A program made the translations under genes and the position numbers. 23,996 nucleotides of DNA. Origin: a virus (lineage: Duplodnaviria; Heunggongvirae; Uroviricota; Caudoviricetes). The stretch's first letter is position 1. Each line of letters begins with the position of its first letter. Shown here piece after piece: positions 1 through 11,083 of the stretch. The DNA is taken from the IMG/VR virus record IMGVR_UViG_2713896899_000017; one strand, written 5' to 3'. A model generated the notes under the pieces. That model was given only the letters and a program-made list of their open reading frames with translations, made no database searches and had not been told where the DNA came from.

Positions 1-1053
1 TTACGGGGTAATGCCAACCGCTGCCGCCACTTTGTCGCCACTTGGCAGCGTTGCCAGAGGATTGAAACGGAGCGCCGTTTCCAGATGATCCGGTGCCAGA
101 TGTGCGTAACGCATAGTCATTTTTATATCGTGGTGTCCGAGAATTTTTTGTAAGGCCAGAATGTTTCCACCCGACATCATGAAGTGCGCCGCAAACGTAT
201 GGCGCAGAACGTGTGTGAGTTGACCGCGAGGGAGCACGATAGACGTTTTTTCCATCACGGATAAAAATTGAAAATAGCAGTCTGTGAAGAAATTGAACCC
301 ATCAAGCGCCATGATCTCTTCGTAAAGCTCTTTACTGATAGGGATGCTTCTGTTTTTCTTCCCCTTCGTTCTTACAAAGGTAATTCGGTATTTGGTCACC
401 TGTGAACGAGTAAGATTTACGGCTTCTCGCCAGCGTGCGCCTGTGCTTAAGCATATCTTAACTACCAGTGCCAGAATTGGGTCCTGACGTTTGCAATCAG
501 CCAGTAATTCAACAATCTGCTCATGGGTAAGCCATGCCATCTCTTTTTCTGCGATGGTGAATTTTCGCATGTTCTCCAGTGGGTTCGGATACGACCATTC
601 GCCCAGGCGGGATAGTTCGCTAAAAACACTACTTAGATAGCTTTGCTCCAGGTTAATGGTGACCGGGCTTGCTCCTTTCTTCCATTTCTCGCTGAAGTAG
701 ATCTCACCTGTCAGGCGTTTATCTCGATAGTGGGCAAACATTTTAGAGGTTAGATCAGTTGCAAGGGGATTGCCCAGAGCGTCAACCATCAGCAGCAATT
801 TGTCATAGACATGCTGCCCAGCAGTCAGTGATTTACCATGTAGTTTGAACCATAGCTCAACCACGTCTTTCAGTGTTCGACGATCCACTGATTCACCTAG
901 CCAGGGCTTTGCTTCGGTTTCTTCCATCGTGTGACGCTCAAAAGCCAGTGCTTCGCCTTTGGTGTCGAATTGTTTACGCACACGACGCCCACTACGTCCG
1001 GCGGGGTAACATTCGCAAAGCCATTTTCCTGTGGTGAGTTTTCGTACAGCCAT
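1..1053 (-). CDS. int: Phage integrase, tyrosine recombinase (P2/186 Int family)
   Basis: Translation from the internal Met (MAVRKLTTGKWLCECYPAGRSGRRVRKQFDTKGEALAFERH...) has a P2/186 Int-like N-terminus and a C-terminal catalytic region (HVLRHTFAAHFMMSGGNILALQKILGHHDIKMTMRYAHL). GGAGG-like RBS precedes the ATG at 1053; stop codon is at 1-3. Confidence 0.9.
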   Translation of the reverse strand: MAVRKLTTGKWLCECYPAGRSGRRVRKQFDTKGEALAFERHTMEETEAKPWLGESVDRRTLKDVVELWFKLHGKSLTAGQHVYDKLLLMVDALGNPLATDLTSKMFAHYRDKRLTGEIYFSEKWKKGASPVTINLEQSYLSSVFSELSRLGEWSYPNPLENMRKFTIAEKEMAWLTHEQIVELLADCKRQDPILALVVKICLSTGARWREAVNLTRSQVTKYRITFVRTKGKKNRSIPISKELYEEIMALDGFNFFTDCYFQFLSVMEKTSIVLPRGQLTHVLRHTFAAHFMMSGGNILALQKILGHHDIKMTMRYAHLAPDHLETALRFNPLATLPSGDKVAAAVGITP

Positions 1054-1241
1054 AAAAAATGCCCTCCAATAGAGAGCATTTTTACTGTATGTATAACCAG
1101 TGTCAATGTATGAAATCCTGCGACCATACATCTCACTGAAGCCATAATGAAGTAGGCTATTCTTTTTGCTATGTGATCATGTAACTTTTGCGGTTAACCT
1201 GTGGCTCATTTTTATTTTAGGCGCAGATATAAAAGCAAAAG

Positions 1242-1448: not shown

Positions 1449-2018
1449 CTATTTAACATACTTGACTGTTAAACTTATAATTTTACCAATTATTTCAATG
1501 TCTTCTATCTTACATTCAAAGGCTCTGTTTCCACCCTCGACGAAGATTCTTCCACCGGGTAAACGAGTAATGTCACGGATCGTTATTTCGCCATCAATAC
1601 TTATTACCCATTTACCATCACGTATATCATCAAATTCCTTATCACAAATAAATTCAGAATTATTATCTGTGATTACAAAAAGATTCTTGAATGCCGACGG
1701 TAGAAATTCTCTATCGAAAATATAAAAACCGTCTTCACACAAGGCCCCATCAGATAATACATATTTAGCAACTTCCATAGTATTTGTATTACCTGAAGTT
1801 TGCTTTGAACCATGCCCGGTTGTGAGCCAATTAAGCGAGGTGCCTGTTTCAAGGGCGCACTGGATTACCCATTCTGCTGGGAATGAGTCACGCATGTAGC
1901 GTGTGGCGAGTGTACTTTTAGAGATTCCTAAATGATCGCACAACGCCTGTCGAGTCTTGAATCCATAAGCTTCTACCATGCGCTCTATGGCGCCTCGTCC
2001 GCCTTTCTCCAAATTCAT
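1449..2018 (-). CDS. cI: Phage 186 CI-type immunity repressor
   Basis: About 190 aa, with N-terminal HTH-like segment (YGFKTRQALCDHLGISKSTLATRYMRDSFPAEW...ALETGTSLNWLTTG). Sits upstream of int on the same strand and divergent from apl/cII, as in 186. ATG at 2018 is preceded by GGAG; the ORF track starts at an in-frame GTG at 2024. Confidence 0.8.
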   Translation of the reverse strand: MNLEKGGRGAIERMVEAYGFKTRQALCDHLGISKSTLATRYMRDSFPAEWVIQCALETGTSLNWLTTGHGSKQTSGNTNTMEVAKYVLSDGALCEDGFYIFDREFLPSAFKNLFVITDNNSEFICDKEFDDIRDGKWVISIDGEITIRDITRLPGGRIFVEGGNRAFECKIEDIEIIGKIISLTVKYVK

Positions 2019-2143
2019 GGTCACTCCAAGTGAACTTTTATCTTGACGATTTCACCATGCGATCGTATGTTTATGGTGTTCACAAAATACAAACGATCCG
2101 TATTCGTCCTGATTAATCATCATTAAACGAGGAATGTTGCATC
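2019..2143. promoter_or_regulatory. Lysis/lysogeny switch region between cI and apl (expected pR/pL promoters and operators)
   Basis: Intergenic region between divergently oriented cI and apl; in 186 it carries face-to-face pR and pL. Exact promoter and operator positions not resolved by eye. Confidence 0.5.
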
Positions 2144-3948: not shown

Positions 3949-4802
3949 GCACCATCCTGAAATGGGCGGGAAATAAAACCGCCATTATGTCCGAACTGAA
4001 AAAACACCTTCCTGCTGGCCCGCGACTGGTTGAACCTTTCGCGGGTTCCTGTGCTGTGATGATGGAGACGGATTACCCCAGCTATCTGGTTGCGGATATT
4101 AATCCTGATTTAATCAACCTCTATAAAAAGGTTGCCGCTGATTGTGAATCGTTTATATCTCGCGCCAGAGTTTTATTTGAGATCGCAAACAGGGAGGTGG
4201 CTTATTACAACATAAGGCAGGAGTTTAATTACTCTACTGAAATTACTGATTTCATGAAAGCGGTATATTTCCTGTATCTCAATCGTCACGGTTACCGTGG
4301 TTTATGTCGCTATAACAAGAGCGGGCATTTCAACATTCCCTACGGTAATTATAAAAATCCGTATTTCCCTGAAAAAGAAATTCGCGCATTTGCAGAAAAA
4401 GCCCAGCGGGCAACGTTTATCTGCGCCAGCTTTGATGAAACGCTGGCGATGTTGAAGGCGGGGGATGTGGTGTATTGCGATCCGCCGTATGACGGCACGT
4501 TTTCCGGTTATCACACTGACGGCTTCACTGAAGATGACCAGTATCACCTGGCATCCGTTCTTGAACATCGGTCATCAGAAGGACATCCGGTCATTGTTTC
4601 TAACAGTGACACATCCCTGATCCGTTCGCTGTATCGCAATTTTACTCACCACTACATCAAGGCAAAACGCAACATCGGTGTGGCAGCTGGCGAGGGTAAA
4701 TCAGCAACAGAAATCATTGCTGTTTCCGGGCCGCGCTGCTGGGTGGGATTTGATTATTCGCGTGGCGTGGACAGTTCTGCCGTGTACGGAGTACGTGCAT
4801 GA
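3945..4802 (+). CDS. dam: DNA adenine methyltransferase (Dam-like N6-adenine MTase)
   Basis: [12 protein letters not shown]-terminus, FAGSCAV (AdoMet-binding FxGxG-like motif) and VYCDPPYDG (DPPY catalytic motif). GGAGGTG RBS; ATGA overlap with the upstream gene and with A. Confidence 0.85.
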
Positions 4803-7213
4803 GTCATGCCGATATGAACAACTGCTGCGGCTTTAACGAGGCTGCCGCAGCATTCTCATGGAACAGCCCGAAAAAGGCCATTAACCCTTATCTGGACCCG
4901 GCGGAAGTTGCGCCGGTTTCTGCGCTTTCAAACCTGATCACTCTGTACGCTGCCGATAACGAGCAGGAACAACTGCGCCGCGAGGCACTGAGTGATCAGG
5001 TCTGGGAGCGTTATTTCTTTAATGAATCCCGTGATCCTGTCCAGCGCGAAATGGAGCAGGATAAGCTAATTAGCCGGGCAAAGCTGGCGCATGAGCAGCA
5101 GCGTTTTAATCCAGACATGGTCATTCTGGCGGATGTCAACGCCCAGCCTTCCCATATCAGCAAGCCGCTGATGCAACGTATTAAATACTTCAGCAACCTG
5201 GGCAGGCCAAAGGCTTATTCCCGCTATTTGCGTGAGACGATTAAGCCATGCCTGGAACGACTGGAGCATGTACGCGACAGCCAGCTATCTGCATCTTTTC
5301 GTTTTATGGCAAGCCATGAAGGGCTGGACGGTCTGCTGATCCTGCCTGAAATGAGTCAGGATCAGGTGAAACGCCTGTCCACCCTTGTCGCTGCGCATAT
5401 GAGCATGTGTCTTGATGCCGCTTGTGGTGATTTGTACGCCTCCGATGATGTTAAGCCGGAAGAAATCCGCAAGACATGGGAAAAGGTGGCAGCAGAAACC
5501 CTGCGACTGGATGTCATACCGCCTGCGTTTGAGCAACTCCGCCGGAAAAGAAACCGCCGCAAACCTGTGCCCTATGAACTCATTCCGGGTTCGCTGGCGC
5601 GTATGCTGTGCGCCGACTGGTGGTATCGGAAATTATGGAAGATGCGTTGCGAATGGCGGGAAGAGCAGTTGCGTGCTGTCTGTCTGGTCAGCAAAAAAGC
5701 ATCTCCCTATGTCAGCTATGAAGCCGTGATGCATAAACGTGAGCAGCGCCGTAAGTCGCTGGAGTTTTTCCGTTCTCATGAACTGGTGAACGAAGACGGC
5801 GACACGCTGGACATGGAGGATGTGGTAAACGCCAGCAGCAGCAACCCTGCGCATCGCCGCAATGAGATGATGGCCTGTGTTAAAGGCCTGGAGCTTATCG
5901 CGGAAATGCGCGGTGACTGCGCCGTTTTCTACACCATCACCTGTCCGTCACGTTTCCATTCCACGCTAAATAACGGCAGGCCCAACCCGACCTGGACAAA
6001 TGCGACGGTAAGACAAAGCAGTGATTATCTGGTTGGCATGTTTGCTGCATTTCGTAAGGCGATGCACAAAGCCGGATTGCGCTGGTATGGCGTGCGGGTG
6101 GCTGAGCCGCATCATGACGGTACAGTTCACTGGCACCTGTTGTGTTTTATGCGCAAAAAAGATCGCCGCGCCATTACTGCTTTGTTGCGTAAGTTTGCCA
6201 TTCGTGAAGACCGCGAGGAGCTGGGGAATAACACGGGACCACGCTTTAAGTCTGAGTTGATTAACCCGCGCAAAGGAACGCCGACAAGCTACATCGCGAA
6301 ATATATCAGTAAGAACATTGACGGGCGTGGTCTGGCTGGCGAGATCAGCAAGGAAACGGGTAAATCCCTGCGTGATAACGCTGAATACGTGAATGCCTGG
6401 GCGTCTCTGCATCGTGTTCAGCAATTCCGCTTCTTTGGCATTCCGGGGCGTCAGGCTTACCGTGAACTGCGATTGCTGGCTGGTCAGGCGGCAAGGCAAC
6501 AGGGTGACAAAAAAGCAGGTGCGCCGGTACTGGATAACCCGCGGCTTGATGCAATCCTGGCTGCTGCTGATGCTGGTTGTTTTGCCACCTACATCATGAA
6601 GCAGGGCGGCGTACTGGTTCCCCGTAAATATCACCTCATCAGAACTGCTTATGAAATCAACGAAGAGCCGACCGCCTATGGCGATCACGGCATTCGTATT
6701 TATGGCATCTGGTCACCTATTGCAGAGGGCAAGATCTGCACTCATGCCGTGAAGTGGAAAATGGTTCGTAAGGCCGTTGACGTTCAGGAGGCGGCAGCCG
6801 ACCAGGGCGCTTGCGCCCCTTGGACTCGTGGCAATAACTGTCCCCTTGCTGAAAATTTGTACCAACAAGGGAAAGACAAATCAGCTGATGGAGATACCAG
6901 AACGGATATCACCCGCATGGATGACAAGGAGTTGCACGATTACCTGCACAGTATGAGCAAAAAAGAACGCCGGGAACTGGCAGCAAGGTTACGCCTGGTG
7001 AAACCGAAACGGCGTAAAGACTACAAACAGCGAATTACAGACCATCAGCGACTGCAGCTCGTGTATGAACTGAAGTCCAGGGGATTTGATGGCAGTGAGA
7101 AAGAGGTCGATTTACTGCTTCGCGGCGGCAGTATTCCGTCAGGAGCAGGCCTGCGTATCTTCTATCGGAACCAGCGTTTGCAGGAAGATGATAAGTGGCG
7201 GGATCTGTATTAA
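4799..7213 (+). CDS. A: Replication initiation endonuclease (P2 gpA-type rolling-circle initiator)
   Basis: 804-aa ORF with metal-binding [10 protein letters not shown] (HUH-like) and paired active-site tyrosines in YIAKYISKN, as in P2 A; follows the early genes as in P2/186. Confidence 0.85.
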
Positions 7214-7305
7214 TTACGCGGGTTAACAATTCGTGCTCTTAATAATACCAGGTATATCAGGCTGATGATCGTAAAAAAACGTTTTACATCAGTAAGATTA
7301 TTATA

Positions 7306-7325
7306 TACTGTAAATATAAACAGTG
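7306..7325. promoter_or_regulatory. LexA operator (SOS box) in front of the tum-like operon
   Basis: tACTGTaaatataaACAGtg has the CTGT-N8-ACAG LexA consensus with an AT-rich spacer; located about 40 nt upstream of the ATG at 7365. Confidence 0.75.
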
Positions 7326-7364
7326 GTTATGTATACAGTGTTACTTGGTGTCATAGGAGGAAAG

Positions 7365-7553
7365 ATGCAGGACTATTTTTTGGAGTCTTTGAAGCTCCAG
7401 CGCATTGATTTTTTTCTTAAGCTTGTAGCGGCTAGTGAGTGTAGTGATGAAGAGAAGGGGCTGGCCCTGCAGTGGGTTTCTGAACTGACAGATGAACTCA
7501 TGGCAAAAATCAGAACCCACGAATACAACCGCTCAATGGATGTCATCAGCTGA
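7365..7553 (+). CDS. Small SOS-controlled protein (62 aa), possible N-terminal Tum-like antirepressor part
   Basis: AGGAGG RBS at 7355-7360, ATG at 7365, directly downstream of the LexA box; sits where 186 tum lies (right of A). Function inferred from position only. Confidence 0.55.
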   Translation: MQDYFLESLKLQRIDFFLKLVAASECSDEEKGLALQWVSELTDELMAKIRTHEYNRSMDVIS

Positions 7554-7563
7554 GGTGACTTTT

Positions 7564-7797
7564 ATGCGCATTGAAATAATGATCGATAAAGAGCAGAAGA
7601 TTAGCCAGTCTACACTGGACGCCCTTGAATCCGAGCTTTACCGCAATCTGCGCCCCCTGTATCCCAAGACGGTAATTCGTATCCGCAAAGGTAGCTCTAA
7701 CGGTGTGGAACTGACCGGACTGCAACTGGACGAAGAAAGAAAACAAGTGATGAAAATTATGCAGAAGGTGTGGGAAGACGACAGCTGGCTGCATTAA
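7564..7797 (+). CDS. DinI-family protein (SOS regulator of RecA activity)
   Basis: MRIEIMIDKEQKISQSTLDALESELYRNL...KVWEDDSWLH resembles E. coli DinI (MRIEVTIAK...DALAGELSRR...ETWESADDWF). GAGGTGA RBS; immediately follows the previous ORF in another frame. Confidence 0.8.
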   Translation: MRIEIMIDKEQKISQSTLDALESELYRNLRPLYPKTVIRIRKGSSNGVELTGLQLDEERKQVMKIMQKVWEDDSWLH

Positions 7798-8067
7798 GAA
7801 ACGTTGCTGGCGTCTGAACTTGCTTCTGGCGTCAGCAAGGTTGAACAACGAGCTATGCGAGGCGTTAGTGTCAATTTGTTACCTTAACCACTATATATGC
7901 CAGGAAATTAACAGTTCTTAAGAAACCGCTTGCATGATCGAGCGCATTGAACTTAAGTTTAAGTAACGAAATCAACAGATGATATTGTTGTCTAAATTTT
8001 AAAGATAATCTGTTGAGGTTGTAGGCGTCGGAGTGTAGACTTCCGCGCCATGTTAAAAGGAGGAGTT

Positions 8068-8283
8068 ATGTCAAGCATCGCCGCATTTAGCCTGGGTAAC
8101 CCAGTTGAACGTCTGGCAAGGGTTCTTAAAGAGAACCAGGACAAACTCAATCTTAGTAAAGATGGTTTTGTGTCCGTAGACTTGTCTAACAAAAGAGCAA
8201 TGGATGCCATCAAGGCACAGATGGATAAGCTTGAAGGCATCAAAACGAGCACTGTAAAAGAGAAAACTAATAGAACCAGATAA
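8068..8283 (+). CDS. Small soluble protein (71 aa), first gene of a two-gene accessory operon
   Basis: Strong RBS AAGGAGGAG 3-4 nt before the ATG at 8068; no TM segment; stop overlaps the start of the next gene by 1 nt (TAATG). No recognisable family. Confidence 0.6.
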   Translation: MSSIAAFSLGNPVERLARVLKENQDKLNLSKDGFVSVDLSNKRAMDAIKAQMDKLEGIKTSTVKEKTNRTR

Positions 8284-9125
8284 TGGCAACATTACTTTTA
8301 GCAGTGATTTTGGTTAGTGGTTTTATTTATGTAAACCTATCACTTTCAACAAGATACCGATATAAGCGTTCCAACGGCTGGGACGCTTATTTTTTTGTGG
8401 CTGCCTGGGGTATCGTTTTTTTTCTCCTTGGCGGTTTTTTCACCTTTATTTTGAACGTCAGCGGAGGGTTTCGTTGGCTGGCGAATGCCTTGAATCTAAC
8501 ACCTGACAGTTTTAATGGCATGTTGTCTTCATCGAAAGACAAACTTCAAAGAATAAATGAAATCAAACAGATAGCATGGGTTATGATTTCAATTGTCCTC
8601 GCTGCGATTTCAGGTTTTGGAAATAAGTTACGCACATCACGTGGAGATCGTCGCTGGGATGCCTTAGCTAAAGCTGTGGGTAATAACGCTTTCGAATCAT
8701 TACTCATGGAAGCGTCCGCAAGACAGTTTCCGATCATAGCAACTCTGTCGTCTCGCAAAATCTATGTTGGTCTTGTTACTTGTCCGGCGTTAGAAAACGG
8801 GCTTTCAGAGCACCTTGAACTTCTCCCGATGTTAAGCGGATATCGGGATAAAGATGATCTAACGATTAGTATCACGACTAACTATCACCAACATTATCTT
8901 GATAGTGGTGTGATAAGTGGAATGTCTCGGCTTAATATCGAAGATTTCCGTGTGCTCATACCAAAAGATGAGGTTGAAACAATTTCGTTTTTTGATACTG
9001 AGACATATAACAAATTTAAAGAAAATGAAGCCAGGGATAGAAAGAACTGTCGAAAGATTGGTAGTAAAAGTGCATCTTCGCGCAGCAAGCGTGCAGCAGA
9101 TGCTGAGTCAAATGATCGTGCATGA
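8283..9125 (+). CDS. Membrane protein with three predicted TM helices and a roughly 165-aa soluble C-terminal domain ending in a basic tail; unknown function
   Basis: Hydrophobic segments TLLLAVILVSGFIYVNL, YFFVAAWGIVFFLLGGFFTFILNV and IAWVMISIVLAAISGFG; translationally coupled to the upstream small ORF; followed by a rho-independent terminator. Confidence 0.6.
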   Translation: MATLLLAVILVSGFIYVNLSLSTRYRYKRSNGWDAYFFVAAWGIVFFLLGGFFTFILNVSGGFRWLANALNLTPDSFNGMLSSSKDKLQRINEIKQIAWVMISIVLAAISGFGNKLRTSRGDRRWDALAKAVGNNAFESLLMEASARQFPIIATLSSRKIYVGLVTCPALENGLSEHLELLPMLSGYRDKDDLTISITTNYHQHYLDSGVISGMSRLNIEDFRVLIPKDEVETISFFDTETYNKFKENEARDRKNCRKIGSKSASSRSKRAADAESNDRA

Positions 9126-9328: not shown

Positions 9329-11083
9329 GTGGCCTCAGTGGAACTGCAAGCAAATGCTCGAACCTTAACAAACGTGTTATCTGTAAATAAAAAATATATA
9401 GTCCCTAGATTCCAAAGAGAATATTCTTGGGGGAAGGAACAAGTAAGTGAACTTTGGCATGATATAGTTTCCAATATTCATTACCAGGAGGATGGGCAGT
9501 ATCAATATGATGAGTATTTCATCGGTGCTCTCGTTTTGGTCGGGCAGGAAACTAGCTCTGAGCTGATGATTGTAGATGGTCAACAACGTCTTACGACTCT
9601 TACTATATTGTTATCAGCATTATGTGATAAATTTAAGTTGATAAATGAGTTGGCTGTAGCTCAATCAATATATAATAATTATATATCTGGTATGGATGAC
9701 GATGGCAGACCTTTTTTTAAATTAGTTAATGAAACTCCTAAGCCATACTTTCAAAACAACATTCAGCATATTGATAAGAGAAATGAAGGACCGGAGTCCC
9801 TTGAAGAAAGAAACTTGCAATCTTCATATAATGATTTAACTGAGTATCTTTCAGAAGATAATCTTTGCCAGACATTAGGAGTAGATAGAGAGAAATTTAT
9901 CTACTTGGAAGCGTTGAAGGCTGTGCGGGATCAAGTTCTACGGTATCTGAAAGTGATTTATATTACAGTTAATGATGAAGATGAAGCTTATACAATCTTT
10001 GAAACTCTGAATGCTAGGGGATTAAACTTAAGTTATGTAGATCTTATAAAAAACAAATTATTTAAGAAACTGAATGGCACACATCCTGATGATGATGCAA
10101 AAACTAAATGGAATAAAATTAGGCAAATAATTGCTAGTCGTAATGGTGTCGGTTCTATCGAGACATTTATCCGTCATTGGTGGGTGTCAAAATATTCTTA
10201 TGTAAGTAGTGACACTCTTTATAAAGCTTTTCTGGATAAGTGGAAAAAAGGCGACATTGATGCTTCAGCGTTCATTGATGAGCTACTTTCAGATGCCGAG
10301 ATATATGTGAAAATATCATCGCCTACAGAACAGGATTTTCCTGAACTGGAAATGAAACCAGTTTATCGAGGTTTGCAGGCATTAAGGCTGTTTAACATAT
10401 CTCAGAATAAACCATTTTTGTTATCTTTATTTAAGGCAAGAGCAAGAGGAACGCTAAAACTTGTTGATATGAATAATGCAGTGCTGTCAATTGAACGCTT
10501 TCATTTTATGTTTAATGCTATTTGTTCATTGCGACCATCAGGTATTGAAAGTGCGTATGCTAAAGCTGCTAGGGCTTTAGTGGATGAAGGTTCTACTAAA
10601 GCTAGTAATAGACAAGTAATAAAGTCTTTGCTTGAAATGTTGGTGAAGAGAAAACCAGACATTAATATGTTTGTTGAAAAGTTTGTTATGCTTAAATTTT
10701 CAAATCAAGAGTTGAAAAATAAAAGGTTGATTCAGTACATTTTTAATAGACTTGAGTTACATCACATGAAAACGGGGGAGTATATGCCTGATTCATTAAC
10801 ATTAGAGCATATTCAGCCTCAGAGTGTGGGGGATTCTGAAGTATATAGCATGATAGGAAATTTATTACCACTTTCAAAAGAATTAAATGAAAAAGCTGGA
10901 AATAAGTCTGTTGTGGATAAGCTTGAAATTTATAAACAATCACAATATGCGCTAGTTAAAATTTTTATTGATGAATTTGAAAATAAATATCAAGGAGAAT
11001 GGACGCCCGATCATATGAGGTCAAGAGCTGCTGAACTAAGTATTTTATCGTATAATTCAGTATGGAAATTGGGGCGTGAGTAA
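9329..11083 (+). CDS. DUF262/DUF1524 two-domain protein (GmrSD-like type IV, modification-dependent restriction endonuclease family)
   Basis: N-terminal DUF262 signatures (PRFQREYSWG, IVDGQQRLTTL) and C-terminal His-Me/HNH-like region (LTLEHIQPQS ... NEKAGNKSVVDK). Strongly AT-rich. GTG start at 9329 per ORF track; an AGGTGG RBS favours the in-frame GTG at 9338. Confidence 0.7.
   Translation: MASVELQANARTLTNVLSVNKKYIVPRFQREYSWGKEQVSELWHDIVSNIHYQEDGQYQYDEYFIGALVLVGQETSSELMIVDGQQRLTTLTILLSALCDKFKLINELAVAQSIYNNYISGMDDDGRPFFKLVNETPKPYFQNNIQHIDKRNEGPESLEERNLQSSYNDLTEYLSEDNLCQTLGVDREKFIYLEALKAVRDQVLRYLKVIYITVNDEDEAYTIFETLNARGLNLSYVDLIKNKLFKKLNGTHPDDDAKTKWNKIRQIIASRNGVGSIETFIRHWWVSKYSYVSSDTLYKAFLDKWKKGDIDASAFIDELLSDAEIYVKISSPTEQDFPELEMKPVYRGLQALRLFNISQNKPFLLSLFKARARGTLKLVDMNNAVLSIERFHFMFNAICSLRPSGIESAYAKAARALVDEGSTKASNRQVIKSLLEMLVKRKPDINMFVEKFVMLKFSNQELKNKRLIQYIFNRLELHHMKTGEYMPDSLTLEHIQPQSVGDSEVYSMIGNLLPLSKELNEKAGNKSVVDKLEIYKQSQYALVKIFIDEFENKYQGEWTPDHMRSRAAELSILSYNSVWKLGRE

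Follow-up and report, generated by a model that had tools for sequence, protein, structure and literature searches.

The stretch of DNA analysed here (the window; 23,996 nucleotides) is a P2-like prophage of the Peduoviridae, and its immunity region, with CI, Apl, CII and Fil, is of the 186 type. Directly after the replication gene A (gpA) lie two small genes, ORF1 and ORF2, in the slot that the LexA-controlled p95-tum-orf97 operon occupies in phage 186. The features of the window that bear on this analysis are listed below.

1-1131, minus strand: integrase
1449-2024, minus strand: 186-type CI immunity repressor (Pfam Phage_CI_repr, 2.8e-33; Phage_CI_C, 2.7e-27)
after CI: Apl/Cox-like, CII-like and Fil-like genes
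4799-7213: gpA replication gene
7283-7311, plus strand: putative SOS promoter, with -35 TTTACA at 7283-7288, a 17-nt spacer and -10 TACTGT at 7306-7311
7306-7325: LexA (SOS) box, tACTGTaaatataaACAGtg
7365-7553, plus strand: ORF1, a putative tumA-type antirepressor gene of 62 aa, with ATG at 7365 and TGA at 7551-7553
7564-7797, plus strand: ORF2, a tumB-type DinI-family gene of 77 aa, with ATG at 7564 and a TAA end
7804-7838, plus strand: stem-loop 3' of ORF2 with an 11-bp stem, in a position analogous to 186 t95a
8050-8283 and 8283-9125, plus strand: two adjoining ORFs of 77 aa (phrog_9843) and 280 aa (phrog_3630)
9329-11083, plus strand: GmrSD-like gene of 584 aa (GmrSD_N, 1e-38; GmrSD_C, 1.2e-11)

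The CI protein has the two-domain architecture of 186 CI, with Peptidase_S24 below threshold. It shares 33% identity with 186 CI and 100% identity over 189 aa with the CI of DuoHS, a prophage of E. coli HS. By analogy with 186, CI is the presumed target of the TumA-type antirepressor discussed below. The region from the tum operon to the portal gene is variable and contains the GmrSD-like gene, whose product also matches the PADLOC HEC-06 (3.8e-90) and Orf5 models and, from these matches, looks like type IV (modification-dependent) restriction-like defence cargo. The two adjoining ORFs at 8050-8283 and 8283-9125 had no match in Pfam or PADLOC and may be additional cargo or may work together with the defence gene. 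The segment that holds them (8050-9125), located 3' of the tum operon and 5' of the GmrSD-like gene, is unlike the corresponding DNA of Fels-2, DuoHS and phage 813R9.

The LexA box at 7306-7325 contains a CTGT-N8-ACAG core at 7308-7323 and, counted by eye, agrees with the consensus TACTGTATATATATACAGTA at 17 of 20 positions. It precedes the 62-aa ORF, as an earlier note on this DNA had claimed. CTGT-N8-ACAG occurs once in the 24 kb of the window, with 0.47 matches expected by chance, and at least one match was found in 38 of 100 shuffles of the window. Taken alone, the lone match is not significant, and since the count is unremarkable the weight of the box comes from its placement. Ten related loci were fetched, with sizes of 12 to 45 kb and, for others, 3 to 9 kb. 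All ten contain one CTGT-N8-ACAG each, located about 25-45 nt 5' of the start of the tumA-like gene, and the box is found in this position even where the ORF1 homologue shares just 37-44% identity. Because one box occupies the same position in every locus, LexA control is backed comparatively, and this is good comparative evidence at the sequence level that ORF1 would be transcribed from a LexA-repressed promoter.

The -10 hexamer of the putative promoter, TACTGT, falls inside the LexA box. This promoter is the putative counterpart of 186 p95, which is given in the 186 record as a -35 of TTCACA, an 18-nt spacer and a -10 of TACTGT that makes up the initial 6 nt of the LexA site; the record labels the equivalent site as LexA binding. 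A sigma-70 consensus scan of the window made no call at 7283-7311 because TACTGT fits TATAAT at 3 of 6 positions only, and the hexamers are therefore assigned by analogy with p95. Positions 7280-7330 are invariant across Fels-2, DuoHS and 813R9. Directly 3' of the LexA box there is also a partial second box, GTGG-N8-ACAG, at 7323-7338. Its TACAGT half-site is invariant in the four phages and the three bases that precede it vary. It may serve as a second, weak half-site for LexA, or it may belong to the leader of the transcript.

The two genes of the operon begin in different frames, with ORF1 starting at 7365 (3 x 2455) and ORF2 at 7564 (3 x 2521 + 1), and each has a Shine-Dalgarno sequence: AGGAGG at 7355-7360 for ORF1, and GAGGTGA at 7552-7558, overlapping the ORF1 stop codon, for ORF2. 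The ORF2 product matches the Pfam DinI family PF06183 over the entire profile (1-63 of 63; E 6.6e-23, 81.3 bits against a cut-off of 24.2) and the DinI structure 1GHH in the PDB over residues 1-75 (E 2.7e-6). The description of ORF2 in the earlier note as a separately initiated 77-aa DinI-family gene, in another frame and behind a GAGGTGA ribosome-binding site, was thus correct. Against the NCBIfam DinI equivalog model NF007893, ORF2 scored 42.7 bits (E 5.8e-11), which is below the cut-off of 111 and about equal to the 44.5 bits of 186 Tum. On these scores ORF2 classifies as a phage DinI-like paralogue and not as the chromosomal E. coli DinI equivalog.

The ORF2 product is 41% identical to residues 71-145 of 186 Tum, in keeping with the resemblance to the DinI part of Tum that had been proposed, and 42% identical to the 186 Tum C-terminal product. 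It shares 78% identity with PSP3 TumB and is 100% identical to Fels-2 STM2726.1 and E. coli HS ECHS_RS04500. Its C-terminal acidic segment, VWEDDSW, is kept in 186 Tum and PSP3 TumB. By analogy, the ORF2 product most likely modulates RecA filaments rather than CI. In the Gifsy prophages, deletion of the dinI homologue was without effect (Lemire et al. 2011, PMC3121763).

Two hairpins flank ORF2. The stem-loop at 7804-7838 lies in a 76-nt fold of -26.4 kcal/mol (z -1.9) and lacks a U tract, and the terminator scan made no call there; with weak support, it may act as a partial terminator equivalent in position to 186 t95a. The sole terminator-like call of the scan, a weak one, was a hairpin at 7542-7559 (GTCATC/GGTGAC) that spans the ORF1 stop codon and the ORF2 Shine-Dalgarno sequence. 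We considered whether this hairpin hides the ORF2 ribosome-binding site for translational coupling and dropped the idea because the fold is no better than that of shuffled sequence (z -1.2).

ORF1 is 61/62 residues identical to E. coli HS ECHS_RS04495, and the same holds for Fels-2 STM2728. Searches of Pfam, NCBIfam, PADLOC and PDB sequences returned no match. The similarity to the N-terminal part of 186 Tum that the earlier note had supposed did not appear in BLASTP, which gave no alignment between ORF1 and 186 Tum; it did appear at the level of profiles. In the PHROG library, ORF1 matched phrog_698 (E 3.6e-38), phrog_8554 (2.4e-8) and phrog_1993 (2.2e-3), and residues 1-70 of 186 Tum matched the same three PHROGs (5.9e-6, 3.4e-12 and 1.5e-23, respectively). 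An initial hhalign comparison of low-diversity profiles, built from the 120 closest homologues per side (Neff 1.5), gave a probability of 15% (E 0.0018). An exhaustive HMMER search for ORF1 yielded 66 cluster representatives at 50% identity, nearly all of 50-100 aa, and with a profile of 61 sequences that included diverse HMMER representatives, the ORF1 family aligned with the 186 Tum N-terminal part at a probability of 95.4% (E 1.6e-8). This alignment is colinear, residues 2-44 against 2-44, and the common pattern is roughly E-x4-(Q/E)R(I/V)(D/E)-x3-(K/R)L-x5-C-x3-(K/R)-x-(L/I)A(L/I)-x-(W/L)(V/I)(S/A)E(L/I). As no similarity is detectable by BLASTP, the homology of ORF1 and Tum rests on profile methods, which support ORF1 as a remote homologue of the Tum N-terminal part and hence as a diverged protein of the TumA family. 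The position of ORF1 directly downstream of gpA (4799-7213, with ORF1 from 7365) is common to 186, PSP3, Fels-2, DuoHS and the distant loci.

Homologues of ORF1 are called 'levan regulatory protein', 'levan regulatory domain protein' or 'hypothetical protein' in some sources. The 'levan regulatory' name found no support in the profile libraries and has the look of an annotation error for the TumA-type antirepressor that spread from record to record.

Both the layout and the content of this operon have close relatives. Fels-2, a reference phage from another host genus, has the same LexA box and junction between the two genes, an ORF1 counterpart with 61/62 residues identical (STM2728, in which the final residue is N, not S) and an ORF2 counterpart with 77/77 (STM2726.1). 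PSP3 likewise has a LexA box, a 60-aa tumA and a separately initiated 77-aa DinI-like tumB directly after gpA. Its TumA, however, belongs to the 186-like subfamily and bears no likeness to ORF1 detectable by eye, and its tumA and tumB share one frame, with a stop codon and 3 nt between them, whereas in the window the frame changes from one gene to the next and the spacer measures 10 nt. The PSP3 GenBank record describes tumA as 'similar to 5' end 186 tum; UV induction of prophage' and tumB as 'similar to dinI and 3' end of 186 tum'. Phage 186 resembles the window in the placement of the operon after gene A, in the LexA box overlapping a TACTGT -10, in the CI architecture, in a Tum N-terminus homologous to ORF1 at the profile level and in a Tum C-terminal DinI-like domain with 41% identity to ORF2. 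In 186, however, both parts form one polypeptide, the 146-aa Tum, and orf97 comes next, whereas in the window unrelated cargo follows, including the GmrSD-like gene. The 186 RefSeq tum (7083-7523 of locus L001) is annotated with four nested in-frame products of 146, 137, 100 and 76 aa. The shortest has a GTG start and corresponds exactly to the DinI-like part, so 186 already makes a free TumB-like protein beside the fusion. A more distant parallel is provided by the dinI-gfoA/gftA operons of Gifsy-1/2/3, which are also LexA-controlled and encode a small antirepressor and a separate dinI homologue, and in which the repressor is inactivated through binding, not cleavage (PMC3121763). Unlike the window, these lambdoid phages have the reversed gene order, with dinI first.

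A split tum region has been described before. Lemire, Figueroa-Bossi and Bossi (2011, PMC3121763) noted that 186 Tum resembles an antirepressor fused to DinI, that tum is split in two in Fels-2 and PSP3, and that in PSP3 the antirepressor activity lies in the upstream gene; for Fels-2, the split into two is also attributed to Bunny et al. 2002, as cited in PMC3121763. Our literature search on tumA/tumB/PSP3 returned no matches. Through the PSP3 annotation, the 2011 report and the genetics of DuoHS, the split tum SOS operon is already known.

The DuoHS genetics bear directly on the function of ORF1. In the Phollow paper (2025, PMC12055606), a markerless 'tum' deletion was made in the E. coli HS prophage DuoHS, with the locus tag ECHS_RS04495. 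In the HS genome this tag denotes a 189-nt gene directly 5' of the DinI-like ECHS_RS04500. Cultures carrying delta-tum or lexA(Ind-) were without lysis or viral foci after mitomycin C (PMC12055606), which showed that tum and a cleavable LexA are both required for mitomycin induction in this near-identical prophage. DuoHS and the window agree in TumA (61/62), the DinI-like protein (77/77) and CI (189/189), and the LexA box, the promoter region and the junction are identical. They differ by a conservative T51S change in TumA, by a few silent or intergenic changes and by other cargo genes 3' of the operon. With CI and TumB identical and TumA 61/62, the published genetics can be transferred to the window with little risk. 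In the DuoHS delta-tum allele the start codon is fused to the stop codon (PMC12055606), and since the stop of the deleted gene overlaps the ribosome-binding site of the DinI-like gene, and the DNA directly 5' of that site is gone, the deletion may have a polar or coupling effect on ORF2 expression.

With high confidence, we propose that the window is a Fels-2/DuoHS-type P2-like prophage with 186-type immunity in which 7283-7797 constitutes an SOS operon that would work as follows. In a healthy lysogen the operon would be kept off by host LexA bound to the box that overlaps the promoter -10. Upon DNA damage, RecA would become active, LexA would cleave itself and the operon would be transcribed. 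The 62-aa TumA-type protein would, as in 186, bind the non-cleavable CI and remove it from its operators, leaving the early lytic promoter free. The 77-aa TumB-type protein, translated from the same mRNA through a ribosome-binding site of its own, would most likely tune RecA filaments and thereby the strength or duration of the SOS response. We infer the direct binding of TumA to CI by analogy from the biochemistry of 186 Tum, which has been reported to bind CI and prevent operator binding (Shearwin et al. 1998, as cited in PMC3121763).

The proposed mechanism depends on ORF1 being the antirepressor. Alternatively, ORF1 could be an unrelated small protein, with induction driven by the DinI-like protein or another product of the SOS operon. 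The missing BLASTP similarity to Tum and the lack of a Pfam, NCBIfam or PDB match for ORF1 would fit this alternative, as would the names 'levan regulatory protein' and 'hypothetical protein' in the sources, and the DuoHS deletion could have altered translation of the downstream gene. However, ORF1 has profile homology to the Tum N-terminus that is colinear from residue 2 and is bridged by shared PHROGs, and the DuoHS deletion called tum removed the orthologue of ORF1. Distant homologues of ORF1 keep the LexA box and the post-gpA slot without a DinI gene, which places the SOS-controlled function in the small protein. In addition, the upstream gene is the one reported to hold the antirepressor activity in PSP3 (PMC3121763), and the C-terminal DinI-like product of 186 is annotated in its record solely as an induction modulator ('modulates SOS induction'). 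Considering these observations together, we regard a non-antirepressor ORF1 as quite improbable.

The earlier note had left two explanations for the separate ORFs, a natural split of Tum or a frameshift, and had pointed to the junction in independent isolates as the place to look. The junction, TGAGGTGACTTTTATG, together with the LexA box and the two-gene layout, is identical in the window, Fels-2, DuoHS and phage 813R9: the ORF1 stop codon, the 10-nt spacer, GAGGTGA and the ATG are the same in the three other phages. The few differences among the four isolates within ORF1 include several silent third-position changes. The region is present in 1125 of 5426 complete E. coli genomes and, among the matches listed from these, two CDS are annotated wherever both genes are covered; it is also present, again as two CDS, in 67 phage records. 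The invariant junction and the recurrent two-CDS annotation lead us to reject a frameshift or sequencing error. The natural split, for its part, agrees with the correspondence of ORF2 to Tum residues 71-145 (41% identity) and of ORF1 to the Tum N-terminal part (hhalign, 95.4%). The two-gene arrangement is the normal state of the Fels-2/DuoHS-type lineage.

The same data weigh against the idea that the locus is an SOS-non-inducible remnant, a single tum gene broken by a frameshift, nonsense mutation or sequencing error. The single 146-aa Tum at the equivalent position in 186 would be compatible with such a break, and the ORF2 frame is open for 24 codons 5' of its ATG (ORF 7492-7797), although by the estimate (61/64)^24 an opening of this length arises by chance about one third of the time. 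Beyond the shared stop, spacer, ribosome-binding site and ATG of the junction and the two CDS in the E. coli matches listed and the phage records, PSP3 holds an independent two-gene version, and DuoHS, with the same layout, is mitomycin-inducible and makes infectious virions (PMC12055606). No DinI domain was found among the 120 ORF1 homologues listed. A broken gene is accordingly very improbable.

Equally improbable is programmed +1 frameshifting in the 7492-7553 overlap, by which a fused Tum-like protein would be made as well, giving three products: the ORF2 frame is open from 7492 and overlaps the final 20 codons of ORF1, the 186 record has four nested tum products and a weak hairpin crosses the junction, but no recognisable +1 shift site was seen on reading 7492-7553 by eye, the hairpin is no better than shuffled sequence (z -1.2), the conserved Shine-Dalgarno sequence and ATG belong to ORF2 itself, solo tumA genes exist without a DinI part, and the PSP3 genes are parted by an in-frame stop instead of a change of frame, so that no common recoding mechanism is conserved. 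A fused Tum made in this way was therefore rejected, for want of a shift site and of conservation.

Solo tumA-like genes of 63-69 aa, located right after gpA and without a DinI-like gene downstream, were observed in several loci, at the following positions:

L006 and L007, 2501-2707: solo tumA-like gene
L008 and L009, 2501-2692: solo tumA-like gene
L010, 2501-2710: solo tumA-like gene
L011 and L012, 1501-1692: solo tumA-like gene

They comprise three distant ORF1 homologues (P0292, P0288 and P0301; L006-L010) and one close 186-like TumA (P0164; L011 and L012), all in the post-gpA slot with no DinI gene next to them. The three distant homologues each lie behind a LexA box, with one CTGT-N8-ACAG per locus. 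The gene that follows is ogr or, for P0164, a DNA methylase. Three architectures therefore exist behind the same kind of LexA box, namely solo tumA, tumA with a separate dinI-like gene, and the 186 fusion; the match list for 186 Tum itself consists mostly of truncated or partial gene calls. The presence of distant tumA-like genes with a LexA box in the post-gpA slot and without DinI marks the DinI part as an optional add-on. These observations support a reading in which the small N-terminal module acts as the indispensable SOS-controlled effector, with the DinI part in an accessory role. A more speculative extension, which we consider possible but rather doubtful, is that Tum is a three-state modular kit in which the DinI-like tuner has been gained, lost and fused repeatedly, and in which the split or fused state alters the threshold or timing of induction. 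If this were true, the DinI-like part would set the duration of SOS signal needed before the prophage commits.

As a discovery the split tum operon has little value; the practical gain lies in annotation. Among the matches listed from about one fifth of complete E. coli genomes, the 62-aa gene goes by 'hypothetical protein' or 'levan regulatory protein', and numerous records of Klebsiella and Salmonella phages use the same labels. The label TumA-type SOS antirepressor could replace these and would mark the prophages that encode the gene as ones that DNA damage, and hence fluoroquinolones or mitomycin, can induce.
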